DNA from: a bacterium
Lineage (GTDB): Bacteria > UBA8248
DNA: 64,000 bases
Direction: 5' to 3'
NCBI GenBank assembly: GCA_965213625.1
Contig: CBDBZU010000004.1
Location: 1,248,001 to 1,312,000, forward strand
In this document: positions 14,853 through 58,587 of the stretch, one piece after another
Position numbering within the stretch: position 1 is the stretch's first letter
How the letters are laid out: each line of letters opens with the position of its first letter
Program-made: the position numbers and the translations under genes
Notes under the pieces: generated by a model
What the model saw: the letters and a program-made list of their open reading frames with translations, nothing else
Told to the model about the DNA's origin: nothing
The model's database searches: none

Positions 14853-14925
14853 GGGGCTGTTAAAAAACCCCCTGGAAGCGATTTTGAGTTTCGCGGATGC
14901 TTTTGAATTTCACTCCCCCCTTGAG

Positions 14926-16445
14926 GGGCCTGTTGAAAAACCCCCGGTATTATGATTGGGTGTAAGGACACTATCTCGCCCGAGATGGGAGTTCCCTCGA
15001 TGATAGGCAGGAAGAGGCGCGAGCAGATGGATTTGTTCGTGGCCGGTTCGCTGGATCGGCTGATCCCCGAGGATCACGTTCTGTACCGCGTGCATGAGGT
15101 GCTGGATTTGAGTTGGCTTCGGGAGGAGGTGGCGGATTGCTATTGCGCGGACAACGGTCGTCCGGGTATCGACCCGGAGGTGGCGGTTCGCCTGATGCTG
15201 GCGGGTCTTCTGCTGGGCTACGTTCACGACCGTCGCCTGCTTCGTGAAGCGAAGGCGCATCTGGCGATCCGGTGGTTCATCGGATACGGGCTGCACGAGG
15301 AGTTGCCGGACCATTCGAGCCTGACGCGGATTCGTCAGCGTTGGGGGGAGGCTCGGTTCCGGGCGATATTCCGCCGGACGGTGCAGGCGTGCCTGGAGGC
15401 GAATGTGGCGAAGGGGGAGGTGGTTCACGTGGACGCCTCGTTGATACGCGCGGACGTGAGCTGGGATAGTCTGGCGGCGCATCATGCGGAGAAGGTGATT
15501 CGGGAGAACCCCGTGGAGGAGAAGAGCGGGAAGAAGGGCGGAGGCCGCGGCGGCGGGGGACCGGTGAGCCGGACAGACCCCGACGCGCGGCTCGCGCGCA
15601 AGAGCGCGCGGGCGAGGTTCGAGCCGAGCTACAAGCACCACGCGGCGGTGGACGATGAGCGGGGCGTGGTTCTCGACGTGACGGTGACGGAGGGGACGTT
15701 GAACGAGCGTGAGATGATGGCGTCCCATATAGAGGCGGTAAGCGAGTTGTCGGGCCGCGCGCCCTCGGTGGTGACGGCGGATTCGGGGTATGCGTACTCG
15801 AAGGTCTACGCGGCGTTGGAGCCTCTGGGCGTGGCGGGGGTGATACCGGCGAAGAAAGAACCCACGCAGAGCCGTGTTCCGTTGCGGCTGTTCCGCTACG
15901 ACGCGCGCCACGACTTGGTGAAGTGTCCGCGCGGCAAGAAGCTTCGCCCCCGGCGGAGCGAGGAGCGGGGGCGCTACTATGGTTCGAGGACGCGTGATTG
16001 CGCGGGCTGCGCGCTCCGGGCGGATTGTCTGCCGCAGGCGCGGTCGAGCAAGGAGGTTTTGATTCCCAACGCGTATCTGGCGCTGTTGCGCGCGCGCCGG
16101 CGGCATGCGCGTTGGGGGGAGGAGGAGCGCCGGCTGTGGCGCCGGCACATGGGGCGCTCGGAGGGTTATCACGGGGAAGCGAAGAGTTGGCACGGACTGG
16201 GGCGGGCGGTGCGTCGGGGCCTTGCGAACATGAAGATTCAGTCCTACCTGACGGCGACTGCGGTGAACCTCAAGCGGCTGGCCGCCGCTTTTGCGGCGCG
16301 TATATTCGCCCTCTGGAGGGCCTACGCCGCCCGGAGACGCCGTCTGCGCGTTCATCGCGCCCTCGCGCGCTGATTGGGATCCCTCCCCGCCGCCGCGTGA
16401 ACCGCCAGAACACCCGCTTCAAAAAAGGGGTTTTTCAACAGACCC
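14926..16445 (+). mobile_element. IS1182-family insertion sequence, copy 1 (1520 bp), 5-bp duplication TTGAG
   Basis: TIRs GGGCCTGTTGAAAAACCCC / GGGGTTTTTCAACAGACCC; TTGAG at 14921-14925 and 16446-16450. Confidence 0.92.
15000..16373 (+). CDS. IS1182-family DDE transposase
   Basis: LIPEDHVL, GRPGIDP, PDHSSLTRIRQR, VDASLIRA, ADSGY, Cys-rich insertion, SEGYHGEAK; alternative start 14952. Confidence 0.93.
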   Translation: MIGRKRREQMDLFVAGSLDRLIPEDHVLYRVHEVLDLSWLREEVADCYCADNGRPGIDPEVAVRLMLAGLLLGYVHDRRLLREAKAHLAIRWFIGYGLHEELPDHSSLTRIRQRWGEARFRAIFRRTVQACLEANVAKGEVVHVDASLIRADVSWDSLAAHHAEKVIRENPVEEKSGKKGGGRGGGGPVSRTDPDARLARKSARARFEPSYKHHAAVDDERGVVLDVTVTEGTLNEREMMASHIEAVSELSGRAPSVVTADSGYAYSKVYAALEPLGVAGVIPAKKEPTQSRVPLRLFRYDARHDLVKCPRGKKLRPRRSEERGRYYGSRTRDCAGCALRADCLPQARSSKEVLIPNAYLALLRARRRHARWGEEERRLWRRHMGRSEGYHGEAKSWHGLGRAVRRGLANMKIQSYLTATAVNLKRLAAAFAARIFALWRAYAARRRRLRVHRALAR

Positions 16446-16712
16446 TTGAGGGGGAGTCAGTGAACTGAGGGCGCAAGCCCGAAAGTGAACAGGTGGGGGG
16501 TATAATTCGGAATGGCAATAAAACGCATTTTACCCCCCACCGAATCGGCCTTCGCACAAACCGCTCGGCCTCTTCGACTCCCCCTCAAGGGGGGAGTGAA
16601 TTGCTCTCTCGTTAGTTGGAAAAACCTGCAAACGCTCGCTCCTCACTCGCGGTTGACCCTCAAGAGGGGAGTGAAATTCAGCGCTCCTTCTGTAGGCTAT
16701 TTCAGCAACCCT
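16446..16712. repeat. Inverted pair of CTCCCCCCTTGAGGGGGAG hairpin units with spacer, plus degenerate MITE end
   Basis: Hairpins at 14911/16446 and 16577-16598; spacer is the reverse complement of 30225-30349; end GGCTATTTCAGCAACCCT. Confidence 0.8.
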
Positions 16713-16718
16713 GCAACC

Positions 16719-17270
16719 CTACAACCAGCGGCGCACGCTCTGGCAGTATTCGCCGTAATCCTCGCCGAATTTTTCCGTGAGGTAATCCTCCTCGCGCGTG
16801 ATAATCACGGCCTGGATCGTGGCGAGGAGCGGCGCGCCCAGAACGAATATCCACAAGTTGTTGAGGAAAACTCCGAGTCCGAGATACAGGCACATGTAGC
16901 CGAGATAGATAGGATTCCGCGAGAAGCGGTAGGGGCCCTCCGTGATGAGGACGTGCGCGGGCTTGTTCGTCTCATGGTTCGTGCGGGCGTTCCTGTAGCA
17001 GACGAGGGAGGTCGAATTCAGGACGGCGCCGATGAACACCATCCCCGCCCCGAGCGTGAAGCGGACGCCTTCGGGGAAGACGTTCGTGGGGAACAGGGTG
17101 TCGAAGCCCACGCCCATGATGAAGTACATCGCGAAATACCAGCCCGGCTTGATGGGGATTTCGGGGCGGTCCTCAGGCTCCTCCCCCTGGGGTTCGGGGC
17201 TCTTGTCCTTCCAGGGCATGAGCTTGTTCGGGTCGTCGAAATCCGTGAATCGCTTGAACCAGTCTTTCAT
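16719..17270 (-). CDS. Isoprenylcysteine carboxylmethyltransferase / PEMT family membrane protein
   Basis: LITEGPYRFSRNPIYLG, REEDYL..KFGEDY..YC..VRRW. Confidence 0.9.
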   Translation of the reverse strand: MKDWFKRFTDFDDPNKLMPWKDKSPEPQGEEPEDRPEIPIKPGWYFAMYFIMGVGFDTLFPTNVFPEGVRFTLGAGMVFIGAVLNSTSLVCYRNARTNHETNKPAHVLITEGPYRFSRNPIYLGYMCLYLGLGVFLNNLWIFVLGAPLLATIQAVIITREEDYLTEKFGEDYGEYCQSVRRWL

Positions 17271-17281
17271 GCGCTAAGTCT

Positions 17282-17554
17282 CTAGGAGTCGCTCTTGTTG
17301 CGGGAAGCCTTGTAGCGCTGGTTCATGCTCTGGGCGACTCCCGCCATGACGGCGGCGGTCAGGTCGAATGCGGCATCGAGCGTCTCTTCGGTGAGGCCCG
17401 CTTTCCCGGCGTCCGCCAGGCGGCGGTCCACTCACGGCTGGCAGTTGCGCACGATGGCGATGGCCAGACCCATCAGGATTTTCTCGCGGTCGGTGAGCAG
17501 GTCCACTTTATGGGCGTCGCGGTAGAACTGGCGAAAATCGGCGCGCTCCGTCAT
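17282..17554 (-). CDS. Carboxymuconolactone decarboxylase/AhpD-like selenoprotein (90 aa, CxxU, TGA at 17432-17434)
   Basis: Hand translation MTERADFRQFYRDAHKVDLLTDREKILMGLAIAIVRNCQP-U-VDRRLADAGKAGLTEETLDAAFDLTAAVMAGVAQSMNQRYKASRNKSDS; SD AGGAG; hairpin 3' of the UGA; absent from the ORF track. Confidence 0.8.
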
Positions 17555-17665
17555 TTTTTCTCCTCTCGGGTGGCGAACGGTGGAATCGGTGGATTATAAG
17601 GGGGCGTATGCGCATTCTCAATCATTCGCGGGCTTCTGGCGCCTTTCATAATAAAGGATGAACAA

Positions 17666-18451
17666 ATGGATTTGGGACTTCACGGAAAAGCCGCCATCGT
17701 AACCGGCGGAAACTCTGGCCTCGGTCTCGCGGTCGCCAGGGAACTCGCGGGGGAAGGCTGCGACGTGTGCATCTGTGCGCGGAATGAGGAGCGTCTGGCG
17801 GCGGCCAAGCAGGAGATCCAGTCGGTCTCGGAAGGTGTGGTGAGCGCGGTGCGCTGCGACGTGAGCAAGGCGGAAGAAATCGCCGCCGTGGTGGAGGAGA
17901 CGGTCGCCCTTTTCGGCACCGTGCACATTCTCGTGAGCAACGCGGGCGTGAGCACCACCAAGGATTTCCTGGACGTGGAGCGCGCGGACTGGGATTACTC
18001 CATGAGCAGCATTCTCTTCGCGGCTTCGGAGTTCAGCCGCCTGGTGATCCCCTACATGCAGAAGCAGGAGTGGGGCCGCATCATCATGACGGGCTCCACG
18101 AGCAGCCGCCAGCCCCGGCCCCGCCGCGTGGTCTCGAACGCCTCCAAGGCGGCGCTCTTGAACTTCACGAAATCACTCGCGGGCGAATTTGTGCGCGACG
18201 GCATACTGGTGAACATCGTGAACCCGGGGCGCTTCAACACCCACTGGCCCGAGCGCGTCGCGAAGATGGCGGCGGAGAGCGGACGGACCGAAGAGGAAGT
18301 CTACGCCGAGATAACGAAGGACATCGCCATCGGCCGCCTGGGCGAGGCGGAGGAGTTCGCGGCGGCGGTGGCCTTCCTCGCCAGCGAGCGGGCGAGCTAC
18401 ATCACGGGTGCCGCGCTCCAGGTCGACGGGGGCGAGATGTTTTCGATCTGA
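17666..18451 (+). CDS. Short-chain dehydrogenase/reductase
   Basis: TGGNSGLG, VSNAG, SNASKAA (Ser in place of the YxxxK Tyr), FLASERASYITG, VDGG. Confidence 0.92.
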   Translation: MDLGLHGKAAIVTGGNSGLGLAVARELAGEGCDVCICARNEERLAAAKQEIQSVSEGVVSAVRCDVSKAEEIAAVVEETVALFGTVHILVSNAGVSTTKDFLDVERADWDYSMSSILFAASEFSRLVIPYMQKQEWGRIIMTGSTSSRQPRPRRVVSNASKAALLNFTKSLAGEFVRDGILVNIVNPGRFNTHWPERVAKMAAESGRTEEEVYAEITKDIAIGRLGEAEEFAAAVAFLASERASYITGAALQVDGGEMFSI

Positions 18452-18452
18452 T

Positions 18453-18684
18453 GGCTCGTGGATAAGATGTGGACAAGGTGTGAATTGATGACTCCCTCCA
18501 GGAAAAGCCAATCCACTCCCCCCTTGAGAGTTCTTGCTGTCCGACGAGAGAGCAATTCACTCCCCCCTTGAGGGGGAGTCGAAGAGATAAGGGCGCAAGC
18601 CCGCAAGCGAGTCGGTGGGGGGAGTGAACTTCAAAGGCGTTCGCGCAATGCAAATTCGCTTGCCGGAGGTTTTTCAACAACCCT
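18453..18684. repeat. MITE arm in reverse orientation with CTCCCCCCTTGAGGGGGAG hairpins
   Basis: Reverse complement matches 14853-14920 and 30126-30190, and the downstream GAATTGCTCTCTCG flank at 16598-16611. Confidence 0.75.
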
Positions 18685-18766
18685 GACAAGGAGGGGGTAG
18701 GGGGGTGCTTTCAAAAGGCTAGGGCGAAACCCGCCGCCGCCCTCATTCCGAGCAAGCATCTCGAAT

Positions 18767-18879
18767 CCTCATCCTGAGTAGGCGCGCAAGCGCCGTATCG
18801 AAGGATGGGGGCACATCTCTCCGGCGCGGCAGTAAACTTCGCCCTTCGATACGCGGCTTCGCCGCTACTCAGGGTGAGG
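18767..18879. repeat. Inverted pair of CCTCATCCTGAGTAG...GTATCGAAGG palindromic repeats
   Basis: Units at 18767-18806 and 18841-18879; third unit at 22552-22589. Confidence 0.8.
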
Positions 18880-18940
18880 CGGAGTGGCGGTCTACCCGAC
18901 CAAAAGATGAGGAGACCTCGCCGGGGAAGTTTGAGATTCG

Positions 18941-19315
18941 TTACGTCAACGCCGCGGCGAACTGAAACCCCGCCCAGACGGCGAGTAGACACCCTATAAC
19001 CGAGAGCGCCACGTAGAGTCCCGCCAGGAGCCAGTCGCCCTCCTGGAACATGAGGAGGGTTTCGAGGCTGAAGGCGGAGAACGTGGTGAACCCGCCCAGC
19101 AGTCCGATCATCGTGAACAGGCGGACTTCTTCGCTGAACAATTCCTTGGCGACGAGCAACTCGTAGGTGCACCCGATGACGAACGAGCCGAAAATGTTGG
19201 CCGCCAGGGTGCCGAAGGGCCAGCCTGCGCCCAGCGATCGTTGCACGAAGAGCGCCAGTCCGTAGCGCAGCGCGCTGCCGATTGCGCCGCCTCCCGCCAC
19301 CAAAAGCCAGTTCAA
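18941..19315 (-). CDS. crcB: Fluoride efflux channel
   Basis: GGAIGSALRY, WPFGTLAANIFGSF, GLLGGFTTFSAFSLE; SD AAGGAG before TTG. Confidence 0.93.
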   Translation of the reverse strand: MNWLLVAGGGAIGSALRYGLALFVQRSLGAGWPFGTLAANIFGSFVIGCTYELLVAKELFSEEVRLFTMIGLLGGFTTFSAFSLETLLMFQEGDWLLAGLYVALSVIGCLLAVWAGFQFAAALT

Positions 19316-19446
19316 CAGAAGCTCCTTTCCGCCGGGTTGAATCTGCACCACCAAAGTCTCCCGAAAAATGACACCATTGCGCATACGGCGCAAGAGTTTC
19401 TCCGTCCCCGCTTTTCGGGTGCGCGCTCGTTCTCTAAAATGAACGT

Positions 19447-20682
19447 ATGGATGAGACGAGCGAAAAACCCAAGCCGAACGACTGGAAAGCGCAAATCGAG
19501 CAAGAGTTGCGCGAACTCACGGAAGCCAACCTGCGCCGGGGTCTTCGCACCGTCGAGGGGATGCAGGGCCCCACAATGCGCCACGGGGGCAGGACCCTCA
19601 TCAACCTCTCGAGCAACAACTATCTGGGCCTCGCCAATTATTCCGCCATCATCGAGGCGTCCGTGGAGGCGGCAAGGGCCGCAGGCGCGAGCGGGGCCGC
19701 CTCCCCGCTCATCTCGGGCCACATGGCCGCCCACGAGGAGTTGGCGCGCGCATTGGCCGCCTTCAAGCGAAAGGACGCCGCGCTCGTTTTCGGTTCGGGG
19801 TTTCTGGCGAACGTGGGATTGATCACCGCCCTGGCCGGTGAGGGAGACGCCGTTTTCAGCGACGCGCTCAACCACGCAAGCATCGTGGACGGCTGCCGGC
19901 TGTCGAGGGCGCGTGTCCACGTTTACCCCCACGCGAATCTCAACCGCCTGGAAGACGCCTTGAGAAATGATTCCCGGGCGCGCCGCAAGCTCATCGTGAC
20001 GGACGGCGTCTTCAGCATGGACGGCGATCTGGCGCCGCTGTCCGGAATCTGCGACCTCGCGGATAAATATGGCGCGATTCTCGTGGTGGACGACGCGCAC
20101 GGCACGGGCGTCATCGGGGAGGGCGGCAGGGGGAGCGGCGCTTATTTCGGTGTGGAGGAGTGCGTTTCGGTCTCCATGGGCACGCTGGGCAAGGCACTGG
20201 CCTCTTACGGCGCGTTCGCGTGTGCGGATACCGAAGTAATCGATTACCTCGTCAACAAGGCGCGGCCCTATATCTACTCGACGAGTTTGCCGCCCGCCGT
20301 GGCCGCCGCCTCCCGCGCCGCCGTCCGGGTCGTGGAAAGCGACGAGGGTGAGCGCCGCCGGGAGAATCTGGCGAACCTGTGCGCGCGCTTTCGCGCCGGG
20401 CTTCGCTACATTGGGGTGCGCGTGAGTGAGCCACCGCCGGGGGCAGAGATTCCGATTTTCCCCATCATCATCAAGGATACGGAAAAAACGCTCGCGCTCG
20501 CGGAGTATCTGATGGAGGCGGGCGTCTACCTGCTCGCCATCCGCCCGCCCACGGTGCCCGAGGGCACCAGCAGGCTCAGGGCCACCCTCATGGCGACGCA
20601 CACCGAAGCGCAGATCGACCGGACGCTCGACGCCCTGGTATCGGGACTCAAGAAGCTCGCTATCCTCCCCGGCCCCGACTGA
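19447..20682 (+). CDS. bioF: 8-amino-7-oxononanoate synthase
   Basis: SSNNYLGLA, SGFLANVG, LNHASIVDG, DGVFSMDGD, DDAHG, GTLGKA, AIRPPTVPEG. Confidence 0.9.
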   Translation: MDETSEKPKPNDWKAQIEQELRELTEANLRRGLRTVEGMQGPTMRHGGRTLINLSSNNYLGLANYSAIIEASVEAARAAGASGAASPLISGHMAAHEELARALAAFKRKDAALVFGSGFLANVGLITALAGEGDAVFSDALNHASIVDGCRLSRARVHVYPHANLNRLEDALRNDSRARRKLIVTDGVFSMDGDLAPLSGICDLADKYGAILVVDDAHGTGVIGEGGRGSGAYFGVEECVSVSMGTLGKALASYGAFACADTEVIDYLVNKARPYIYSTSLPPAVAAASRAAVRVVESDEGERRRENLANLCARFRAGLRYIGVRVSEPPPGAEIPIFPIIIKDTEKTLALAEYLMEAGVYLLAIRPPTVPEGTSRLRATLMATHTEAQIDRTLDALVSGLKKLAILPGPD

Positions 20683-20923
20683 CGGAGCCGTTGAAAAATC
20701 CGGTTTCGGGAATAGGCGCCTTTGAGGCAATTCCTCCATTCTTAGTCGGAACTAACCTCATCGGTCGCGTCAAACCCTCGTCCCGTCTGGCGGCGGATTT
20801 CCCCCAACACCCCTCCTCGACTGGAAAAGCAACCCCCCCTACCCCCCCTTGTCAGGGGGGCAAGAAAAAGCAAAGCTCCCTCTGCCCGGCGGGGGCGCAT
20901 CGCCTTTTTTACCCCCCTGACAA

Positions 20924-22443
20924 GGGTCTGTTGAAAAACCCGGTGTTGGAAGCGGGCGTTTTGGCGGCTCACGCGGCGGCGGAGAGGCAGCCCAATCGGC
21001 GCGTGAGGGCGCCATGTGTGCGCAGACGGCGTCTCCAGGCGGCACAGACCCTCCAGAGGGCGAATAAACGCGCCGCAAAAGCGGCGGCCAGCCGCTTGAG
21101 GTTCACCGCTATCGCCGTCAGGTAGGACTGGATCCTCATGTTCGCAAGGCCCCGGCGCACCGCCCGCCCCAGTCCGTGCCAACTCTTCGCTTCGCCGTGG
21201 TAGCCCTCCGAGCGCCAACGGTGGCGGTCGTAGAGCCGCTTCTCCTCCTCCCCCCATCGCAAATGGCGACGACGCGCGCGCAACAGCGCCGGATACGCGT
21301 TGGGAATCAACACCGCCTTGCTCGTTTGCGACTTCGACAGACAATCGGACCTGAGCGCGCAGCCCGCGCAATCCCGCGTCTTCGATACATAGGAGCGCCC
21401 CCGCTCCGTCGCCTGCCGGGGACGCAGCGTCTTGCCTCCCGGACACTTCACCACCTCGTTGCGCGCATCGTAGTGGAACAACTGCAGCGGAACACGGCTC
21501 TGGCTGGGTTCCTTCTTCGCTGGTATCAGCGCTTCCACGCCCCGCCGCTCCAATTCGCCATAAACCTTCGAGTACGCGTAGCCCGAATCCGCCGTCACCA
21601 TCTCCGGCGCGCGGCCCGACAACTCGCTTACCGCCTCTATATGGGACGCCATCATCTCACGCTCGTTCCGCGTCCCCTCCGTCACCGACACGTCGAGAAC
21701 AACACCCCGCTCATCGTCCACCGCCGCGTGCTGCTTGTAGCTCGGCTCGAACCCCGCCCGCGCGCTCTTGCGCGCAAGCCGCGCGTCCGGGTCCGTCCGG
21801 CTCACCCGACCCCCGCCACCGCGGCCTCCTCCCTTCTTCTCCCCCTCATCATCGACGGGATTCTCCCGAATCACCTTCTCCGCGTGGTGCGCCGCCAGAC
21901 TCTCCCAGCTCACGTCCGCGCGTATCAACGAGGCGTCCACGTGTACCACTTCCCCCTTCGCCACATTCGCCTCCAGGCAAGCCTGCACCGTGCGACGGAA
22001 TATCTCCTTGAACCGAGCCTCCCCCCACCGCTGACGAATCCGCGTCAGGCTCGAATGATGCGGCAAATCCTCGTGCAGCCCGTACCCGATGAACCACCGG
22101 ATCGCCAGGTGCGCACGCGCCTCGCGAAGCAGACGCCGGTCGTGTACGTAGCCCAGCAACATACCCGCCAGCATCAGGCGCAACGCCACCTCCGGGTCGA
22201 TCCCCGGTCGACCGTTATCCGCGCAATAGCAATCCGCCACCTCCGCGCGAAGCCAACTCAAATCCAGTACGCGGTCCACGCGCATCAGGACGTGATCCTC
22301 GGGGATCAACCGTTCCAGCGAACCGGCCACGAACAAATCCATCTGCTCGCGCCCCTTGCTGCCTATCATCTCGGGAACTCCCATCTCGGGCGAGATAGTG
22401 TCATTACACCCAATCACAATGCCGGGGGTTTTTCAACAGCCCC
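20924..22443 (-). mobile_element. IS1182-family insertion sequence, copy 2 (1520 bp), 5-bp duplication GACAA
   Basis: Ends GGGTCTGTTGAAAAACCC / GGGTTTTTCAACAGCCCC; GACAA at 20919-20923 and 22444-22448. Confidence 0.93.
20969..22369 (-). CDS. IS1182-family DDE transposase
   Basis: Paralog of 15000-16373; near-identical to 56971-58371. Confidence 0.93.
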   Translation of the reverse strand: MIGSKGREQMDLFVAGSLERLIPEDHVLMRVDRVLDLSWLRAEVADCYCADNGRPGIDPEVALRLMLAGMLLGYVHDRRLLREARAHLAIRWFIGYGLHEDLPHHSSLTRIRQRWGEARFKEIFRRTVQACLEANVAKGEVVHVDASLIRADVSWESLAAHHAEKVIRENPVDDEGEKKGGGRGGGGRVSRTDPDARLARKSARAGFEPSYKQHAAVDDERGVVLDVSVTEGTRNEREMMASHIEAVSELSGRAPEMVTADSGYAYSKVYGELERRGVEALIPAKKEPSQSRVPLQLFHYDARNEVVKCPGGKTLRPRQATERGRSYVSKTRDCAGCALRSDCLSKSQTSKAVLIPNAYPALLRARRRHLRWGEEEKRLYDRHRWRSEGYHGEAKSWHGLGRAVRRGLANMRIQSYLTAIAVNLKRLAAAFAARLFALWRVCAAWRRRLRTHGALTRRLGCLSAAA

Positions 22444-22628
22444 GACAAGGGGGGGTAGGGGGGGTTGACTTCATGGGGTTTTCTTTCAAAGGGGGTTGCC
22501 TTTACCCTCTCAGGGGTTTTTTTAACAAGCCCGCATTGGTCGCGATTGACACTCGATACGGCGCGCAAGCACGCCTACTCGGGATGAGGGAGGGGCGGGG
22601 GTTTTTCAACAACCCCCTGACTCCCGGC

Positions 22629-23633: not shown

Positions 23634-23654
23634 TTGCGCTCTCCTTTGCCCGCC

Positions 23655-24083: not shown

Positions 24084-24119
24084 AAGACGCACTCCCGTGG
24101 ATGATGAGTAAATATTTGC

Positions 24120-29583: not shown

Positions 29584-29600
29584 CCTGAAGGAGCGGTTCG

Positions 29601-30125: not shown

Positions 30126-30467
30126 GGGGTTGTTGAAAAGACCCGTGGAGCGATTTTAATTGCGCGCACGCTTTTGAAGTTCACTCCCCCCTTGAGGGTC
30201 GGTCTCCCTCGGGGAAGACCGACGATGAAGCCGAGCGGTTTTTTCGAAGGCTGAATCGGTGGGGGGTAAAATGCGTTTTATTGCCATTCCGAATTATACC
30301 CCCCACCAGTTCACTTTCGGGCTTACGCCCTCAGTTCACTGACTCCCCCTCAAGGGGGGAGTGGTTCTCTTCTCTCTCGTTTGTTGGCGATGATGTTCAA
30401 GGGCGAAGTCCGCAACTGCACTGGCGGGGGGTAAATTCCGAGTTTGAAAAACTTTTTCAACAGCCCC
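30126..30467. mobile_element. MITE-like element (342 bp) with IS1182-like ends and paired C6-TTGA-G5 hairpins
   Basis: Ends GGGGTTGTTGAAAAG / CTTTTTCAACAGCCCC; flanks CCGAGTAG / CCGAGTGG; homologous to 14853-16620 minus the IS. Confidence 0.75.
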
Positions 30468-48530: not shown

Positions 48531-48568
48531 GCGAATCCACCGGCTCCCCCGTGAGCGAGGAGCACACC

Positions 48569-49333: not shown

Positions 49334-49354
49334 TCTTAGTTTCGATCTTTACAT

Positions 49355-49387
49355 GCGGCGGGGGCGGAAACCCCCGCCGCTTTTTTT
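49355..49387 (+). terminator. Rho-independent terminator
   Basis: GCGGCGGGGG-CGGAAA-CCCCCGCCGC-TTTTTTT. Confidence 0.85.
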
Positions 49388-49401
49388 CGGGATGAGAAAG
49401 A

Positions 49402-50895: not shown

Positions 50896-51763
50896 AGTCA
50901 TCCAGCAGATTGTGACCGCCCTCTTTGGCCTGCCGGACGGTGAAGATGGGCGGCGGCACGTCCGGACGCCATTTGGTGGTTTCCGGCGGTTCGGGCCACT
51001 CATACGGCAGGTGCCGATAGGCGTTGGGCGCTTGCGCTTCTTCCAGCAGCGCCGCCATGTCCTCGCAAATTTTGCGCTGTCCCTCGTAATCGCCCGCGAC
51101 GCCCAGTTGCCGCCCGAAGGGGTACTGGACGAACACCGCCCTGGGTACGCAGACTCGCTCGGTGGTCTCGGGCACGTTGGAGATGATGACGGTGGCGATC
51201 CCCGCCTTTTCGATTTCGCGCTGAAGCAGTCCGCCGGACCGGTTGCACAAGGGTCAGACCGGATAGAGGAAGGCCGCATCCACGCCCTCCGCTTTCATCT
51301 TCTCGATCATCAGGGGCGCGGTGCGCTTCACCAGCGGGTTGAAGTTCGGGATGTAGCCCATGATGGAATAGAGCGTATCGGCCAGCGCGCCGATTCTTCC
51401 CTCCTGCTCGAAATCCGTGAAGATATCGACCGGCCAGGACACGTTTCTGTCCTCGGCCATGAAGGAGGTATCGACGTGTAAGTGCGAATACGCCACGTCG
51501 TCCTGGCCCGCCGTCTTGGGAATCTCCCGGTGGGTGGGGTCGCCCCACGTGCCCTCGCGGCGCTCTCTTTCATAATCGAAAGAAACGTCGTTCTTCATGA
51601 AGATGCCGGCCGTAGATACCAGGGTGACCTTGCACTCTGCCAGTGGTTTTTCCAGCGGCGTCCAGGGCGTTTTGGCCGGGTCCGCGTGGCGCTGCGCCAG
51701 GACGCGATCGCGCGAGGTGGGGTGAAAATAAAATCCATCGACTTTTTCGATCGGCATGTTCAT
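50852..51763 (-). CDS. Glycine/betaine/proline reductase selenoprotein-B-like protein (303 aa, UxxC, TGA at 51254-51256)
   Basis: ORFs 51254-51763 and 50852-51250 are one frame: PWTPLEKPLAECKVTLVSTAG, GDPTHREIP, DRNVSWP, DAAFLYPV-U-PLCNRSGGLLQREIEKAGIATV, VPRA, PFGRQLG; hairpin 3' of the UGA. Confidence 0.88.
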
Positions 51764-51786
51764 CCTCGAATTCCGGGTTTCATGAT

Positions 51787-53055
51787 TCAGGCTGGAGACG
51801 CTCCTCTCTTATCTCTTTTCGTCCAGCCGAGCAACACGACAAAGAAGCCGCAGAGAAAAAACATGAGCGCGAAGGCCGAAAGTCCCCAAAGGTAGGAGCC
51901 GTGCAGGTCGAAGAGGAAGCCCGTGGTCCATGGCCCTGCCGAACCCCAGAGGGCGAAGCCCATCATCGCTACGCCGTTCACGCGCCCGAAGCCGGGGCCT
52001 TCGAAATAATCCGCCAGGATGGCTGAGCCGGTAGGCCGCATGAGCCCCAGGGCTAGACCATTGGCGATCGTGCCCAGGTAGAAGCGGATTTGGGGGTCGC
52101 CCTTCTCGTAGTTCGCCAGAACGAGGACGGAGGCGATCCCGAGCGCCACGCCGATGAGGAACGTCGGCACCCGGCCCAGGCGGTCCGAGACCGGGCTGAT
52201 AAGGTTCGCTCCCACCTGGCATAAGCCCCAGATGGCGAACAGAACGCTCGCGGTTTCGAGCGAGAAGCCCTGGTCGGTGGCGTGAGGCACCAGATGAACA
52301 AGCATGCCCGCGAAGGTGTACGCCATGGGCAGAAACGAACCCATGAAGAAGAAAAACGGCAGATTTAATAAGGAGACGCGCTTATCATCGGATGATGAAG
52401 GCGCTGGTTTCGGTGTTTGCTCCTCCGGCAGTTCCAGGATGAAAGGGGCGTCGGCGATGGTGCCTTTGTCGGATGGGTGGTCCCTGTGAAAAATGATGCA
52501 GACGGGGAGCACGATGAGCAGAGTCACTCCCGCAAGCGCCAAATAGCTCATTCGCCAGCCCAGGGCCGAGATGAGGTAGGGCGTCGCGATGTTCAGGCAG
52601 AAGGCCCCCCCCTGGCAGGTGTTGGAAATGCCCAGGGCGAGTCCTCTTTTTTTCACGAACCAGTTCGAGAGCGTGGGCACCTGGGCAATCCAAGTGCTCG
52701 CGGCGAAGCCTGCGCACAGGCCGATGTACATCAGATAAAAATGCCAGAGCGAGGAGATTTGGCTTCCGATGAGAAGCGAGAGGCCGAATACCACGACCCC
52801 CGCCGACATCGACGCCCGTATGCTCCAGCGATCGGAAAAGATGCCCGCCAGCGGCGAGATGATCGCCTGGGCCACCATGCCGATGGAAAAAGCCGCCGCC
52901 GTCGCCCCCCGGCTCCAGCCCAGCTCGCCCGAGATTTCCTTGAAGAAGGGCCCGATGGTGGCGCGAATGGCGATGAGCGAAATCATGACGAGAAAGACCA
53001 CGGCCAGAACCACCCAGCCGTACCAGAGGCGCGATTCGTCCCGCATGACGTTCAT
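51787..53055 (-). CDS. MFS transporter
   Basis: WYGWVV, ELGWSRG, NWFVKKRGLALG, GWR, SDRLGR; multi-TM pattern. Confidence 0.92.
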   Translation of the reverse strand: MNVMRDESRLWYGWVVLAVVFLVMISLIAIRATIGPFFKEISGELGWSRGATAAAFSIGMVAQAIISPLAGIFSDRWSIRASMSAGVVVFGLSLLIGSQISSLWHFYLMYIGLCAGFAASTWIAQVPTLSNWFVKKRGLALGISNTCQGGAFCLNIATPYLISALGWRMSYLALAGVTLLIVLPVCIIFHRDHPSDKGTIADAPFILELPEEQTPKPAPSSSDDKRVSLLNLPFFFFMGSFLPMAYTFAGMLVHLVPHATDQGFSLETASVLFAIWGLCQVGANLISPVSDRLGRVPTFLIGVALGIASVLVLANYEKGDPQIRFYLGTIANGLALGLMRPTGSAILADYFEGPGFGRVNGVAMMGFALWGSAGPWTTGFLFDLHGSYLWGLSAFALMFFLCGFFVVLLGWTKRDKRGASPA

Positions 53056-53059
53056 GGTC

Positions 53060-54328
53060 CTAAGCGCGCTCTTCGCGCGGCATGCCAGAGAGGCTCACGA
53101 CGAAAACCGCGCCAACGATGAACATGCAGCCCACGAGGAGAAAACCCGAGTAGTAGTTCCCGCTGGCGTCGAAGAGCATGCCCGTCACGAGCGGGCCGAG
53201 CGCGCCAATGAGGGAGAAGACCATCATTGCGCATCCGTTTACGAGACCGAACCCCGGCCCCGCGAAATGGTCCGCCAATAGAGAGGACGCCGTGGGCCGG
53301 ACGAAGCCCAGTGCGAAGCCCACTCCCATCGCGCCCGCGTATATCAGCCACTCGGGCGATGCGCGCGTGAAGGCGGCCAGGAGATAACTCGCGGCCACGC
53401 CGCACACCACGCCCACCATGTAGGTGGGGAGCCTCCCGATGCGATCCGAAATCGCGCTCAACCCGTTTCCTACGACGAGGGCCGCCCCATACAGGGCGAA
53501 GAGCGCGGCGCCCCCCGAGGGAGAGAAGCCCTGGTCCGTCGCGTGGGGTATCAGGTGCACCAGAACGGCGGTGAAGACATACGCGATGCTGCCGTAAATG
53601 CCTCCGATCAGCATGAACCTGCGGGTGAAGAAAAAAGTAAAGGATACAGTTTCCGATTCCTTATCCGCAGGAATGATGACGGCGGCCCTGGCGCGGGCGC
53701 GGGAGAACTCCTCAGACGTGAGAAAAGGCGCGTCGGGAGCGGTTCGTTTCTCTCTGGGGTGGTCGCGCAGCGTCGTCACGGCGAAGGGCAGCACGAGTAG
53801 GAGTACGATTCCCGCCAGTGCGAGATAGCTACCCCGCCAGCCGAGTGCCGCGATGAGCAGAGGCGTGAAGATGTTCACGATGGGCGCGAAGCCCTGGGCT
53901 GCGTGCGAGAAACCCATGGCGAGGCCGCGCTTCAAGACGAACCAGTTCGAGAGCAGTTGCACCTGCGGCAGGTTGGCCGTGAAGGCGAAGCCGACCGATA
54001 GCAGAAAATACATGGCGTAGAATTGCCAGAGCGCACCGATGTAGGCGCCGATGATGAGCGCCGCTCCGTTTACGAGGATGCCTGCGCCAATCACCCAGCG
54101 CATGTTGAAGCGCTCGAGCACCCAGCCCGCGAAGGGGGCGACCATCGCCTGGCCGAGCATGCCCATGGTGAAGGCGGCGGCTGTCTCTGCGCGGTTCCAG
54201 CCGAATTCGCCGGAAATGTCCTTGAAGAAAACGCCGATAGAATTTCTGATGCCGATGGTCACCGTCAGGATCATGAAGACACTGAGGAGGATCACCCACC
54301 CGTACCACAGGCGCAGTTCTTTGCTCAT
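53060..54328 (-). CDS. MFS transporter (paralog of the adjacent gene)
   Basis: WYGWVI, EFGWNRA, NWFVLKRGLAMG, SDRIGR. Confidence 0.92.
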   Translation of the reverse strand: MSKELRLWYGWVILLSVFMILTVTIGIRNSIGVFFKDISGEFGWNRAETAAAFTMGMLGQAMVAPFAGWVLERFNMRWVIGAGILVNGAALIIGAYIGALWQFYAMYFLLSVGFAFTANLPQVQLLSNWFVLKRGLAMGFSHAAQGFAPIVNIFTPLLIAALGWRGSYLALAGIVLLLVLPFAVTTLRDHPREKRTAPDAPFLTSEEFSRARARAAVIIPADKESETVSFTFFFTRRFMLIGGIYGSIAYVFTAVLVHLIPHATDQGFSPSGGAALFALYGAALVVGNGLSAISDRIGRLPTYMVGVVCGVAASYLLAAFTRASPEWLIYAGAMGVGFALGFVRPTASSLLADHFAGPGFGLVNGCAMMVFSLIGALGPLVTGMLFDASGNYYSGFLLVGCMFIVGAVFVVSLSGMPREERA

Positions 54329-54345
54329 CTGGTAACGCGATGCGA

Positions 54346-54684
54346 TCAAGACGATGATTGGTCTTTGAGCGGTTGCCCCACCCAAAACGAATAGCCGGAG
54401 TAGAATTTCTCCACCCGTTTGATGGCGTGATCCGAGATGCGGACGCCCTCGACCGCGACGTCCGTAACGCCGGGGTGCTGCATCAGCTTCTGGCGCACGC
54501 CCAGGGCGTAGGTGACGCTCTTGAGCATGCAGCCGCGGCACGCGCCCTCGAAGCGCAGCGATACTTCGCCTTTTTCGCTCACTTTATCGAGCGAGATGCC
54601 GCCGCCGTGAATCTTGAGAAGCGGGCGAATCTGCGTCTCGATGATGTCCTGGACGTCGGTGACGAGGGCTTCGTGCTCGTTCAT
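54346..54684 (-). CDS. NifU C-terminal-like (Nfu) Fe-S carrier domain protein
   Basis: IRPLLKIHGGGI, FEGACRGC; ATGA overlap with the upstream gene. Confidence 0.85.
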   Translation of the reverse strand: MNEHEALVTDVQDIIETQIRPLLKIHGGGISLDKVSEKGEVSLRFEGACRGCMLKSVTYALGVRQKLMQHPGVTDVAVEGVRISDHAIKRVEKFYSGYSFWVGQPLKDQSSS

Positions 54685-55709
54685 CGGGCTGCTCCGCTCC
54701 ATAACTCTTGTTTCTTGGCCTCCACGTCCACGCCGAAGATGCGCGCCTGGTTCAGGCCCAGGATGTTGCGCTTATCCTCTTCGGTGATCTGCGGATAGCC
54801 GTAGTCGTCCTGCATGGATTCCGGGATTTCCATCTCCCATATCCACTCGATAACGGGCTTTGCGTTTCCCAGAAGCGCCATCTCAGAACCCCAGAGCACT
54901 CTCTCGGAGCCCACGTCGCGCAACAATCTGCCCATCCACTCGGTGAAGGTTCTGGGCGCGACCATGGGCGTATGGCCGATGCCTGAGAGCACGAGAAAGA
55001 CGTTCTCGTAGCGGTTCGCCATCCAGACGACTTCCTCGAAGTAGGGCACCGCCAGGTGGTGGATGCCGAAGAGCAGATCGGGAAAATCAAGGGCCGCGCC
55101 CTCGATGTCGAGCGGTGAGAGGTCGCGCAGCTTCGCCCGTGTGATGGGGTTTCCCTTGTGGAACTGGAATACCTCGATGCCCAGTTCGCGCCCTTTTTCA
55201 TAGAGGGGGTAGGCGATTTCGGGGTCGTCGCACGCCCAGGATTTTCCGTCCACGTGGGCGTTGTAGATTTTCATGGATTTCGCCCCCCACTCCTTCACCT
55301 GGCGCTCCATCTCCTCACACGCTGCGGCCACGCTCGGATACATGGGGTCCACGGCCCCACAGAACAGGCAGCGCTCGGGAAACGCTTGAGCGAACGCATA
55401 CTGCGCCTTCACGGGCGCAAAGCCGTCTTTATACAGGTCGAACAAGGGCACGGCCTGGGCCATCGCCATGTCGGTGCCCGAATCCTCGAAAACGAGGCGG
55501 CCCATGTCCTCCACGCTCCAGCGGCGCTTGAAGCCCTCCACCGGGTGCCAGTTCGCGTAGACGTCGGTGGGCGCGGTTCGTCTACGGCGGAGCACCTTGC
55601 TCACGTGGTAGTGGCGGTCGTATTCGCTTTGCTCCGAGACGAGGTTCTCATCCGAGTAGTCGTACATGTGCACCACGTTGTCGAATACGAATACGTCGTC
55701 GCGAATCAT
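54681..55709 (-). CDS. Amidohydrolase-2 family metal-dependent hydrolase
   Basis: DNVVHMY, VDP, YPLYEK, FHKG, FPDL.F.IHH, VLWGSE, KRNILGLN. Confidence 0.85.
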   Translation of the reverse strand: MIRDDVFVFDNVVHMYDYSDENLVSEQSEYDRHYHVSKVLRRRRTAPTDVYANWHPVEGFKRRWSVEDMGRLVFEDSGTDMAMAQAVPLFDLYKDGFAPVKAQYAFAQAFPERCLFCGAVDPMYPSVAAACEEMERQVKEWGAKSMKIYNAHVDGKSWACDDPEIAYPLYEKGRELGIEVFQFHKGNPITRAKLRDLSPLDIEGAALDFPDLLFGIHHLAVPYFEEVVWMANRYENVFLVLSGIGHTPMVAPRTFTEWMGRLLRDVGSERVLWGSEMALLGNAKPVIEWIWEMEIPESMQDDYGYPQITEEDKRNILGLNQARIFGVDVEAKKQELWSGAAR

Positions 55710-55914
55710 GACGCCAATCTCCTGGTAGGGGATAGAATCACCATCGCCAGATTATACATACAGCGCGCGGTCATGTCAGACGGGAGAGAGATTTCAGGTT
55801 AGCTTTGGTTGGGCTTTTAGGCGCAAGAGTCGTGAAATACCGCCGCTATTGGACTTAGATATAAAGTGCGCGTAGAAAAGTCCCTGGTTTTTCCACGCGC
55901 CAAAGGAGCAGGAC

Positions 55915-56784
55915 ATGGACTGGGTGACGCTCGCCGTCATTGCGGCTCTCGCGCAGGTGCTCAGAAACGCGGCGATGAAATCCATCGGCCACAAGCTGGA
56001 CGAGTACATCAACGTGCTGGGGCGGTTCGCTTTCCTGCTCCCCTTCGCGGCCGTGGCGGTGTGGATGAGGGGGGTGCCCGAGATACAGCCCGGCTTCTGG
56101 TGGTTTTGCGTCCTCTTCGGCTTCCTGCAAACCTCGGCCACGCTCGCGCTCTCGAAGGCGCTCCTGTACGGCTCGATGGGCGTGGTGACCTCGCTGTGGA
56201 AGCTCGCGACCATCTGGCTGGTGGTGCTCGCTTTCATCACGCTGGGCGAGGCGCCCTCGGCCTGGGGGCTCGTGGGTATCTTTGTCACCCTGGCGGGCGT
56301 CTACGGGCTGAACGTCTCGCGCGCGCGAATCGGCTGGTTCGAGCCTGTCCGCGCCATATTCACCGACAAGGGAATGCGCTACACCGTGCTCGCCTCGCTT
56401 TTCTACGCGCCCTCGGTGATTACCTTCAAGCAGGCGGCGGTGCTCTCAGACGCCACTTTCGGCACGCTCATTACCTATGCGGCGGCATCGCTCGTCGTGT
56501 TGCCGCTGACCCTGTGGAAATCCGCCGAGCACTTCAAGAGCGCGCCCAGGCTCTGGAAAGGCTTCGTATCCCTGGGGCTTTTCGCTTTCATCACGAGCTT
56601 GGCCCAGGCGGAGGCCTACCGTCTCACGCTCACCTCATACGTGGAATCGGTGAAACAGGTGGAGATACTCCTGGCCATCGGCATCGGCTACGTCTTCTTC
56701 AAGGAGCGCGACCGCGTGCGCGAAACGCTGCTGGGAGGCGTGGTGATTCTGGCCGGAATCGTTCTTCTGATTTTGGCGGGGTGA
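55915..56784 (+). CDS. EamA/DMT family transporter
   Basis: Two EamA-like halves with hydrophobic helices, ITLGE, YVESVKQ, FFKE. Confidence 0.85.
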   Translation: MDWVTLAVIAALAQVLRNAAMKSIGHKLDEYINVLGRFAFLLPFAAVAVWMRGVPEIQPGFWWFCVLFGFLQTSATLALSKALLYGSMGVVTSLWKLATIWLVVLAFITLGEAPSAWGLVGIFVTLAGVYGLNVSRARIGWFEPVRAIFTDKGMRYTVLASLFYAPSVITFKQAAVLSDATFGTLITYAAASLVVLPLTLWKSAEHFKSAPRLWKGFVSLGLFAFITSLAQAEAYRLTLTSYVESVKQVEILLAIGIGYVFFKERDRVRETLLGGVVILAGIVLLILAG

Positions 56785-56925
56785 GATTCGAGCGAGAAGC
56801 GAGAATTTCCCGACTGAAGAAGGAGAAATTCAGCCTTCGTTCCAGGGACTCGGTTTCTGCGACAACTCCTCCTTCTTCAGTTGAAGTAGACCCTCAAGGG
56901 GTTGTTGAAAAAGCCCCCCCTTGTC

Positions 56926-58445
56926 GGGTCTGTTGAAAAACCCGGTGTTGGAAGCGGGCGTTTTGGCGGCTCACGCGGCGGCGGAGAGGCAGTCCAATCG
57001 GCGCGTGAGGGCGCCATGTGTGCGCAGACGGCGTCTCCAGGCGGCACAGGCCGTCCAGAGGGCGAATAAACGCGCCGCAAAAGCGGCGGCCAGCCGCTTG
57101 AGGTTCACCGCTATCGCCGTCAGGTAGGACTGGATCCTCATGTTCGCAAGGCCCCGGCGCACCGCCCGCCCCAGTCCGTGCCGGCTCTTCGCCTCGCCGT
57201 GGTAGCCCTCCGAGCGCCAACGGTGGCGGTCGTAGAGCCGCTTCTCCTCCTCCCCCCATCGCAAATGGCGACGACGCGCGCGCAACAGCGCCGGATACGC
57301 GTTGGGAATCAACACCGCCTTGCTCGTTTGCGACTTCGACAGACAATCGGACCTGAGCGCGCAGCCCGCGCAATCCCGCGTCTTCGATACATAGGAGCGC
57401 CCCCGCTCCGTCGCCTGCCGGGGACGCAGCGTCTTGCCTCCCGGACACTTCACCACCTCGTTGCGCGCATCGTAGTGGAACAACTGCAGCGGAACACGGC
57501 TCTGGCTGGGTTCCTTCTTCGCTGGTATCAGCGCTTCCACGCCCCGCCGCTCCAATTCGCCATAAACCTTCGAGTACGCGTAGCCCGAATCCGCCGTCAC
57601 CATCTCCGGCGCGCGGCCCGACAACTCGCTTACCGCCTCTATATGGGACGCCATCATCTCACGCTCGTTCCGCGTCCCCTCCGTCACCGACACGTCGAGA
57701 ACAACACCCCGCTCATCGTCCACCGCCGCGTGCTGCTTGTAGCTCGGCTCGAACCCCGCCCGCGCGCTCTTGCGCGCAAGCCGCGCGTCCGGGTCCGTCC
57801 GGCTCACCCGACCCCCGCCACCGCGGCCTCCTCCCTTCTTCTCCCCCTCATCATCGACGGGATTCTCCCGAATCACCTTCTCCGCGTGGTGCGCCGCCAG
57901 ACTCTCCCAGCTCACGTCCGCGCGTATCAACGAGGCGTCCACGTGCACCACTTCCCCCTTCGCCACATTCGCCTCCAGGCAAGCCTGCACCGTGCGACGG
58001 AATATCTCCTTGAACCGAGCCTCCCCCCACCGCTGACGAATCCGCGTCAGGCTCGAATGATGCGGCAAATCCTCGTGCAGCCCGTACCCGATGAACCACC
58101 GGATCGCCAGGTGCGCACGCGCCTCGCGAAGCAGACGCCGGTCGTGTACGTAGCCCAGCAACATACCCGCCAGCATCAGGCGCAACGCCACCTCCGGGTC
58201 GATCCCCGGTCGACCGTTATCCGCGCAATAGCAATCCGCCACCTCCGCGCGAAGCCAACTCAAATCCAGTACGTGGTCCACGCGCATCAGGACGTGATCC
58301 TCGGGGATCAACCGTTCCAGCGAACCGGCCACGAACAAATCCATCTGCTCGCGCCCCTTGCTGCCTATCATCGAGGGAACTCCCATCTCGGGCGAGATAG
58401 TGTCCTTACACCCAATCACAATGCCGGGGGTTTTTCAACAGCCCC
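56926..58445 (-). mobile_element. IS1182-family insertion sequence, copy 3 (1520 bp), 5-bp duplication TTGTC
   Basis: Same TIRs as copy 2; TTGTC at 56921-56925 and 58446-58450. Confidence 0.93.
56971..58371 (-). CDS. IS1182-family DDE transposase
   Basis: Near-identical to copy 2. Confidence 0.93.
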   Translation of the reverse strand: MIGSKGREQMDLFVAGSLERLIPEDHVLMRVDHVLDLSWLRAEVADCYCADNGRPGIDPEVALRLMLAGMLLGYVHDRRLLREARAHLAIRWFIGYGLHEDLPHHSSLTRIRQRWGEARFKEIFRRTVQACLEANVAKGEVVHVDASLIRADVSWESLAAHHAEKVIRENPVDDEGEKKGGGRGGGGRVSRTDPDARLARKSARAGFEPSYKQHAAVDDERGVVLDVSVTEGTRNEREMMASHIEAVSELSGRAPEMVTADSGYAYSKVYGELERRGVEALIPAKKEPSQSRVPLQLFHYDARNEVVKCPGGKTLRPRQATERGRSYVSKTRDCAGCALRSDCLSKSQTSKAVLIPNAYPALLRARRRHLRWGEEEKRLYDRHRWRSEGYHGEAKSRHGLGRAVRRGLANMRIQSYLTAIAVNLKRLAAAFAARLFALWTACAAWRRRLRTHGALTRRLDCLSAAA

Positions 58446-58587
58446 TTGTCAGGGGGGTAAAAGCGATTCGCCCCGCCGAGGAGGTTATTCAACAACCTCC
58501 AAGGGGGGAGTGATTTTGAGGCGGCGCTTTGGGTTTCCTTCCTCATTGGTCGGTTTTTCTGTTCTGCTTCCGGTGGGTGTGTTTCCC

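Follow-up and report, generated by a model that had tools for sequence, protein, structure and literature searches.

An IS1182-family insertion sequence at the centres of C-run/G-run palindromes in a UBA8248 bacterium: probable sequence-led targeting that follows the element lineage

Three copies of an insertion sequence (IS) lie in a 64,000-bp stretch of the chromosome of a bacterium of the UBA8248 lineage (the window, C4:1248001-1312000 of the 4.15-Mb assembly of this genome, G000), and each of them splits a small palindrome with a C-run on one side of the insertion point and a G-run on the other. The question raised by this locus is what the transposase reads at such a site: the sequence of the palindrome, the hairpin that it could form, or neither. 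An earlier note on this DNA had proposed that the palindromic stem or its structure is recognised. The explanation that we consider probable is an active, sequence-led, lineage-encoded insertion of an IS1182-family element at the centres of C-run/5 bp/G-run palindromes.

Reading of the junctions shows that each of the three copies consists of 1520 bp flanked by a 5-bp duplication, as had been noticed before. The palindromes split by copies 1 and 2 belong to repeats designated REP-A and REP-B (REP, repetitive extragenic palindrome). The elements, their genes and their target duplications are as follows.

14926..16445, plus strand: IS copy 1 ("type 1"), 1520 bp, with the ends GGGCCTGTTGAAAAACCCCC ... 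GGGGTTTTTCAACAGACCC; one of six identical copies in the genome
14952..16373, plus strand: transposase gene of copy 1, 473 amino acids (aa), with the domains DUF772, DDE_Tnp_1 and DDE_Tnp_1_6; 347 bits with the NCBIfam IS1182 model
14921..14925 (left) and 16446-16450 (right), unstranded: 5-bp duplication TTGAG of copy 1, from junction reading
14911..14920, unstranded: REP-A long arm CACTCCCCCC, split by copy 1
16446..16598, unstranded: remainder, past copy 1, of a composite REP-A unit of about 165 bp
20924..22443, minus strand: IS copy 2 ("type 2"), 1520 bp, 88% identical to copy 1
20969..22417, minus strand: transposase gene of copy 2, 482 aa; 362 bits with the NCBIfam IS1182 model
20919..20923 (left) and 22444-22448 (right): duplication GACAA of copy 2, inside the right-hand REP-B hairpin TACCCCCCT-GACAA-GGGGGGGTA
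56926..58445, minus strand: IS copy 3 (type 2), 1520 bp
56971..58419, minus strand: transposase gene of copy 3, 482 aa, open frame
56921..56925 (left) and 58446-58450 (right): duplication TTGTC of copy 3; the left-side C-run is shared with a solo IS-end-like motif

When the element and one duplicate are removed, a C-run/5 bp/G-run palindrome is rebuilt in all three cases, as the earlier note had stated: CACTCCCCCC-TTGAG-GGGGAGTC for copy 1, TACCCCCCT-GACAA-GGGGGGGTA for copy 2 and CCCCCCC-TTGTC-AGGGGGGTA for copy 3. Eleven of the 1520 positions distinguish copy 2 from copy 3; read along the plus strand the two copies run in the same direction, and their hairpins are oppositely oriented, again in agreement with the earlier description.

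By transposase profile and domain set, these elements belong to the IS1182 family. The two transposase types score 346.8 and 361.8 bits against NCBIfam NF033551 (IS1182; cut-off 270), and PF05598, PF01609 and PF13751 exceed their gathering thresholds in both, with the IS5, IS4, ISNCY and IS982 models staying below their own cut-offs for both. In IS1182-family elements a single transposase gene is enclosed by short terminal inverted repeats, and the length is about 1.3-2 kb; the present format is 1520 bp with a single frame of 473-482 aa and ends inverted relative to each other, the imperfect terminal inverted repeats of all three window elements being GGG[G/C/T]CTGTTGAAAAACCC. From the coordinates, the non-coding ends of the element measure 26 bp and 26-72 bp, and an Rfam scan of the window returned no family at the gathering score.

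A BLAST search of the whole genome detects 32 full-length copies, one 5'-truncated copy and one 129-bp derivative. Type 1, to which window copy 1 belongs, accounts for six full-length copies, all identical; for the remaining 26, identity to window copy 2 is 95-100%. Flanks 300-700 bp away from the copies were compared, and no two loci have common flanking sequence of at least 150 bp; the copies therefore occupy 32 separate places. The transposase frame is open in 32/32 copies and, together with the identity of six of them, this argues for recent activity. Just outside the 5 bp, a run of at least four C on the left and of at least four G on the right are both present in 20/32 copies, and CC and GG or longer flank the 5 bp in 26/32. 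Positions of the form C4-N5-G4 number 382 in the 4,084,587 bp of the IS-free chromosome, which gives a nominal binomial P of 5.9e-73 for 20 of 32 copies at such positions. The exact duplications within the main repeat, REP-A, comprise 9 TTGAG and 6 CTCAA, so that both insertion orientations occur. C/G flanks are found as well at two sites outside the repeat families, C5-TCGTC-G6 and CC-TTACA-GG. As proposed in the earlier note, the flanks of the remaining copies and of related elements were compared, and the palindrome habit holds: at least one run of four or more C or G adjoins the 5 bp in 29/32 copies of this genome and in 34/35 sampled copies of five congeners.

The relatives add the second part of the argument. 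Related elements with 79-94% DNA identity are present in 18/22 other genomes of the genus; about nine matches per genome were scored, so that the tallies are samples. In the five congeners, among copies with both ends found, both runs flank 24/35 and the duplication is exact in 22/35; in G008, C/G-run flanks were judged by eye to be present in 7/7 copies read, and one G002 copy duplicates CCTTG, the mirror register of the usual TTGAG. The element of the G022 lineage (ends GGGGTTGTTGAAAAACCCCT..TTATTCAACAACCCC) is different. Its transposase shares 72-79% identity with the others, as against 76-92% among those, and the comparison yields 21 lineage-diagnostic substitutions. Its targets are REP-C, CAAACGC-N4-[5 bp]-N4-GCGTTTG, and REP-D, CAATTCC-N4-[5 bp]-N4-GGAATTG, and its exact duplications include GATGA, GAAGA, GATCA, TCCTC and TTTTC. 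Read by eye, 30 left ends in G022 comprise 18 with a CAAAC-type arm, 9 with a CAAT[CT]CC-type arm, 1 intermediate and 2 others; in about 28/30 the distance to a CAAACGC- or CAATYCC-type arm is 4-5 nt, while a C-run adjoins at most 1/30. This lineage uses these palindromes even though G022 carries 93 REP-A hairpins. Conversely, intact REP-C sites exist in G020 (19), G013 (22), G008 (14) and G000 (11-16), and none of the copies read in G020, G013 and G008, nor any of the 32 in G000, uses them. Given that G022 bypasses its REP-A hairpins and the copies in the other four genomes bypass REP-C, target choice follows the IS lineage, and not the supply of palindromes in the genome, and is encoded by that lineage. 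Farther away, an element in G030, which represents a different family within the class, encodes a protein with 60-70% identity and carries an ATGAT duplication, and a copy in G032 has the palindromic flanks CCTGCCG..CGGCAGG.

Two sources of specificity other than the protein were considered and rejected. A search for a guide inside the IS revealed no lineage-specific complementarity to the target; the shared words of 7-9 nt all fall within the coding region, and the longest, ACGCTCGTT, is present in all lineages. The non-coding ends are, moreover, too short to hold a guide RNA. The notion that the target mimics an end-to-end IS junction (CCC-N5-GGG) fails as a general rule on the G022 lineage, which has the same GGGG..CCCC ends and targets without C/G runs.

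Sequence and shape can be partly separated within this genome. A census of the IS-free chromosome for perfect stems of at least 6 bp with loops of 3-8 nt yields 8,724 hairpins, namely 172 (2%) with CCCC/GGGG beside the loop, 36 of the opposite polarity (G-run/C-run) and 8,516 others. The empty site could be reconstructed for 22 of the 32 copies, and 16 of these sites are in a perfect hairpin, 15 in the 172-member C-run/G-run class and one in cccccct-TGTC-agggggg; none of the 22 is in the 8,516 other hairpins or the 36 G-run/C-run hairpins (nominal P = 5.7e-28). The remaining 6/22 sites, three C6-TTGAG-GG.., C5-TCGTC-G6, CC-TTACA-GG and C-AAGGC-GG, have no stem of at least 6 bp. A GTAG-type palindrome pattern (GGACAGG..CCTGTCC) has 114 matches in G000 and is absent from all IS flanks examined. 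Thus, the ability to form a hairpin is not sufficient, because other perfect hairpins and the GTAG-type matches receive no insertions, and a long stem is not necessary, because sites that have none are used; the C-run and the G-run matter. Of the earlier proposal, what stands is that the element selects palindromes and enters them at the same 5 bp; recognition of structure alone does not stand, given the C-run/G-run stems of 16/16 hairpin insertions, the sites with no stem of 6 bp and the hairpins bypassed in G022.

The strongest rival to sequence-led insertion puts structure first: the transposase would bind an extruded hairpin or cruciform, or a single-strand hairpin, with a 5-nt loop and cut the loop, the bases of stem and loop only fine-tuning the choice. 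This scheme would explain why the duplicated 5 bp are central in three to four unrelated stems (C-run/G-run; CAAACGC..GCGTTTG; CAATTCC..GGAATTG; and, in the more distant G032, CCTGCCG..CGGCAGG), why the apical loop of DNA folds contains all 5 or 4 of these base positions (-9.0, -7.8 and -6.6 kcal/mol), and why IS1272, of the same family, has been reported, in the available portions of PMC4923244 and PMC5678879, on hairpins with little primary-sequence conservation. It does not predict that all 16 hairpin insertions would avoid the 98% of perfect hairpins that have no C-run/G-run stems, or the GTAG pattern, nor that 6/22 rebuilt sites would be without a stem of 6 bp or longer. In REP-A, the symmetric loop is CTTGA, and the duplication, TTGAG, lies 1 nt off it. 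The orientation of the transposase relative to replication direction, deduced from GC skew, is 17 versus 15 (P = 0.86); this absence of bias counts, weakly, against a single-strand (lagging-template) target, which was rejected on that ground. We regard a structure-first mechanism as unlikely, although a structural contribution beside sequence may exist.

Several observations weigh against the preferred explanation, sequence-led insertion, and temper it. The sites are copies of few repeat families rather than independent samples of sequence space, so the P values overstate the case, and the tallies from relatives are, as said, samples. The AAGGC duplication in G000 is an exception to the rule, as is an ATGAT site without C/G runs in G020, the single one among 35, and 10/32 copies have no exact duplication. 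All preferred sites are both C/G-rich and palindromic, such that sequence and structure are confounded, and in all lineages the duplicated 5 bp form the apical loop of a predicted hairpin. What the explanation rests on are direct observations, namely the positions and duplications of the copies, their statistics, lineage specificity and intergenic location, and the intact, partly identical copies.

A further alternative concerns the repeats themselves, which might be moved by this transposase as non-autonomous passengers, or need it in some other way, so that IS and target would spread together. Among 23 genomes of the genus, the 17 with REP-A all have IS matches with E <= 1e-22, and the six without REP-A (G001, G007, G009, G010, G015 and G019) have no IS match better than E of about 1e-4; all modules of the intergenic mosaics start with GGGG and end with CCCC, as the IS does, and the IS-end-like motif GGGG[CT]TGTTGAAAAA occurs 217 times outside IS copies in G000. 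Against this, the ends of the REP-A unit (CACTCCCCCCTTGAGGGGGAGTC) are unlike the IS ends, the 5-mers flanking REP-A units are inverted rather than direct, and G022 retains its REP-A hairpins alongside an IS lineage that does not use them. The co-occurrence would be equally expected if the IS persisted only where its target exists, and it is suggestive only, possibly a single clade effect, because the genomes are related and not independent, at least three of the six negatives being the most distant congeners (76-79%). A dependence of the repeats on the transposase thus seems quite improbable. Two other schemes are hardly credible. Were insertion random, with survival only in harmless intergenic repeats, the intergenic location of the sites would be explained, but not the use of the same 5 bp of a 21-bp hairpin each time, given that intergenic DNA offers vastly more neutral positions, nor the fact that the six identical, hence young, copies already fit the pattern. 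If, instead, the hairpin arms moved with the IS in a unit longer than 1520 bp, the merging of the GGG...CCC ends into the G/C runs, which leaves boundaries ambiguous by 1-3 bp at C/G sites, would make sense. The same IS, nevertheless, sits in REP-A, in REP-A2, in REP-B and in unique sites, with the 5-mers TTGAG, GACAA, TCGTC, TTACA and AAGGC; about 81 REP-A hairpins are unoccupied, each with a single 5-mer; and G011 has an IS-free unit at the corresponding locus.

Sequence-led insertion would proceed as follows. A DDE transposase would cut with a 5-bp stagger at the centre of the C-run/5 bp/G-run palindrome; the 5 central bases would be duplicated and the palindrome arms left on either side of the element. 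A symmetric complex of transposase and ends would contact two equivalent half-sites of the duplex, so that either orientation would result, and the target would be read mainly as sequence, a C-run 5' and a G-run 3' of the cut. The half-site preference would be set by the transposase protein as the reader and would differ among lineages. Because the palindromes end composite repeats located between genes, insertions would rarely hit genes and copies could accumulate.

As a more speculative extension, which we hold to be doubtful, the related IS1182 transposases, 72-79% identical, would be natural protein-only retargetable integrases that read palindrome shape together with lineage-specific arms and co-evolve with the repeats. 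If so, the 21 lineage-diagnostic substitutions would hold the target-switch code, the repeats would persist by absorbing insertions, and the IS would persist only in repeat-carrying genomes, in line with the 17-and-6 pattern described above.

The inexact duplications deserve separate consideration. Among the 32 copies, 22 have exact 5-bp duplications; in 4, one flanking 5-mer is the reverse complement of the other, 5 are off by one base or a 1-nt shift, and 1 has none. The 10 inexact copies may result from IS-IS recombination and from deletions between the direct-repeat arms of units, an explanation that is as yet unproven. A hand count that includes near-matches shows the flanking 5-mers to be nearly balanced (CTCAA, 13 left and 11 right; TTGAG, 11 left and 13 right), and a search for unoccupied perfect palindromes of the form CCCCTTGAGCTCAAGGGG or CCCCTCAATTGAGGGG, which would explain inverted flanking 5-mers, found none. 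In four type-1 junctions and one small element (C4:589095, 2942640, 2944174, 3560900 and 3063654), the long arm runs on into TCAA or, on the other side, is preceded by TTGA, where TTGAG/CTCAA would be usual, a form found in none of the unoccupied hairpins; we would attribute it, tentatively, to loss of the DNA between the direct-repeat arms of the unit. In copy 3600955, both long arms are present and the internal segment is missing. In-place inversion of the loop was considered for the four junctions and rejected; the base counts do not fit, and deletion between unit arms with IS-IS recombination fits better.

The targeted hairpins are not free-standing REPs but the terminal hairpins of composite units of about 165 bp. 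When REP-A hairpin copies are aligned, they fall into inverted pairs 119-176 bp apart, and the layout of the unit is CACTCCCCCC, TTGAG, an internal segment that starts with GGGGAGTC, contains a central G6..C6 hairpin and ends with GACTCCCC, then CTCAA and GGGGGGAGTG. The interior is conserved (GGGGAGTCGA..GGTGGGGGG..CCCCCCACC..TCGACTCCCC) in dozens of copies. REP-A2 is a variant in which the second arm is swapped for another hairpin, and REP-B is likewise the end of a composite unit. About 14 REP-A units have an IS in one terminal hairpin, which spaces their hairpins 1645-1690 bp apart. In the window, copy 1 has entered the left hairpin of one of these units, and 16446..16598 holds TTGAG, the short arm GGGGAGTC, the internal segment with the central G6...C6 hairpin and the unoccupied right terminal hairpin at 16577-16597; in the REP-B unit the left hairpin is empty and the right one is filled by copy 2. 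The five empty hairpins listed in the earlier note all exist, with starts at 14738, 16580, 18562, 20842 and 30345. The unoccupied palindromes of the window, other than that of the copy 1 unit, include the following.

14738..14754: empty REP-B-like hairpin, C7 TTGTC A G4
14757..14781: empty REP-D palindrome AATTCC-GACC-GAGGA-GGGA-GGAATT, the second target type of the G022 lineage
14815..14841: empty REP-C palindrome CAAACGC-TCGT-TCCTC-ACTC-GCGTTTG, a type used as target by the sister IS lineage of G022
18559..18579: empty REP-A hairpin
20842..20860: empty left-hand REP-B hairpin of the unit that holds copy 2, CCCCCCC TTGTC AGGGGGG
30342..30362: empty REP-A hairpin

Insertion sites are overwhelmingly intergenic. 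The reading frame that spans an IS site has a median length of 89 aa, compared to 373 aa at 2,000 random positions, and a frame of at least 150 aa spans 6/32 sites as against 87% of random positions; "intergenic safe harbours", the phrase of the earlier note, is a fair description of this outcome. The longest site-spanning frame, at window copy 3, is spurious; this copy lies between two convergent genes, for an EamA transporter (55915-56784, plus strand) and for a decarboxylase dependent on pyridoxal phosphate (59048-60193, minus strand). The copies outside any repeat are C4:3222773-3224292 (AAGGC) and C4:1356409-1357928 (TTACA); the former is inside a 248-aa frame and may interrupt a gene.

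Comparison of sister species shows that the mosaics between genes turn over fast. At the intergenic region that holds copy 1 (14660-16725), which has the same pair of conserved genes on its two sides throughout, each of five sister species has different repeat modules and G006 has none, and G011 carries an IS-free REP-A unit at the matching locus, the sole such orthologous case among the species compared. An inverted REP-A pair 1.5 kb apart (C4:3726324/3727857) was checked for an autonomous partner of the repeats, and its two frames include none that is transposase-like. We take these two frames to resemble MsrB and a glyoxalase-type protein.

Insertion into palindromes by IS1182 elements is a known kind of behaviour, of which the present element is a large and clear further case: for the majority of copies the insertion point is the same within a repeated palindrome, with TTGAG/CTCAA or TTGTC/GACAA recurring. 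A 2015 review, as cited in the available portion of PMC4923244, already held that some IS1182 members target palindromes. The earlier note had named the IS110 and IS3 families as those with REP-targeting members; this is documented but incomplete, as IS1272, of the IS1182 family, targets hairpins (PMC4923244; PMC5678879, as far as their available text goes), and the accessible part of PMC1525189 lists the IS3, IS110, IS4, IS256 and IS5 families for REP targeting, with IS1182 unmentioned there. Our search of the IS1182 literature found no paper on an IS1182 element that duplicates the loop of a REP-like repeat, nor on the present pairing of IS and repeat.

The closest known system is IS1272/TnSha1 of staphylococci, for which the available sections of PMC4923244 and PMC5678879 describe a transposase of the IS1182 family, inverted-repeat hairpin targets that are often intergenic or terminators, both orientations and repeated insertions in one hairpin. 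According to the same sections, IS1272 deletes or replaces part of the hairpin, makes no target duplication and has little primary-sequence preference, whereas the present element keeps the stems, duplicates 5 bp (exactly in 22/32 copies here and 22/35 in congeners) and is restricted to particular repeats; with both arms kept and the 5 bp duplicated, it is not an inverted-repeat-replacing element of the IS1272 type. In IS1397 and ISKpn1, of the IS3 family, the insertion is in the loop of a repeated extragenic palindrome (enterobacterial REPs and bacterial interspersed mosaic elements) and the specificity is attributed to the transposase, in the accessible text of Tobes & Pareja 2006 (PMC1525189). 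Both the transposase family and the host repeats are different from those described here. IS1397 and ISKpn1 move by a copy-out/paste-in mechanism. Among IS110-family elements, IS621, ISPpu9 and ISPpu10 resemble the present one in that all or nearly all copies are in one REP family, as the available parts of PMC1525189, PMC12288879 and 10.64898/2026.03.19.712850 report; the last two, to the same extent, describe a DEDD recombinase whose guide, a bridge or seek RNA, is supplied by a long non-coding region. The present element, with its DDE transposase and short non-coding ends, is not of the RNA-guided IS110/IS1111 type.

The targeted repeats also resemble classical REPs mobilised by REP-associated tyrosine transposases (RAYTs) in being short, GC-rich intergenic palindromes with about 100 copies and composite units. 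This genome has a single RAYT-like gene (Y1_Tnp; C4:1978566-1979099, minus strand, 177 aa; locus L031 1453-1986), the frame of which scores 22.3 bits alone and 27.5 bits with its neighbours. It is flanked by GTAG-type palindromes, GTAGGGACAGG..CCTGTCCCTAC, the pattern with the 114 matches, and GTAGG..CATATATG.., not by C/G hairpins, and together with them constitutes a second, classical REP system in G000. Because the C/G hairpins are without the GTAG tag and do not flank the RAYT-like gene, they are called REP-like here, not REPs.

It is the lineage-specific switch of target within one genus that is worth following up. The 32 copies in this genome, dozens in sister species and about 30 ends of the sister lineage make up a large natural data set on a poorly studied trait of IS1182 elements, insertion at palindrome centres. 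Since two lineages use different targets where both target types are present, the question of whether sequence, shape or both are read becomes directly testable. The case also accounts for the mosaic make-up of intergenic DNA in this genus and for its variation from species to species at a given locus, and annotators should be aware that such "hairpin repeats" are parts of larger units.

Solo IS-end motifs are a further component of the intergenic mosaics. In the window they lie at the following positions.

14853..14872, plus strand: solo IS-end-like motif GGGGCTGTTAAAAAACCCCC, preceded by CCCC-TGACAA
22597-22616, 30126-30140 and 30452-30467: solo IS-end motifs
56898..56920, plus strand: solo IS-end-like motif GGGGTTGTTGAAAAAGCCCCCCC, immediately upstream of copy 3

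Within 700 bp of each other, 30 pairs of solo ends in the genome face inward and 3 face outward; the inward-facing pairs are 120-420 bp apart and most have no 5-bp duplication. The flanks of the 217 motifs comprise 37 with a C-run, 19 with a REP-C half, 9 with a REP-D half and 144 others. Several IS lineages probably gave rise to these motifs, as miniature derivatives, long ago. The 129-bp derivative (C4:298757-298884) consists of two inverted type-2 right ends; it has a REP-B left arm on one side and a G-run on the other, and its 5-mers are unequal.

Four public read runs were examined for empty alleles, and in all of them the contigs are short and end at repeats; the one joint across the IS (run X1), with 27 other letters and a 26-letter side at a depth of 3.6, leads to another repeat locus. 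Small shares in sponge and reef metagenome runs have no bearing on habitat. Finally, two inverted type-2 copies 10 kb apart, C4:842825-844344 (plus strand) and 854557-856076 (minus strand), have identical 30-bp outer flanks (tcgccctcgtcttgccgactccccctcaaa), an arrangement that could be composite-transposon-like or the product of an inversion.

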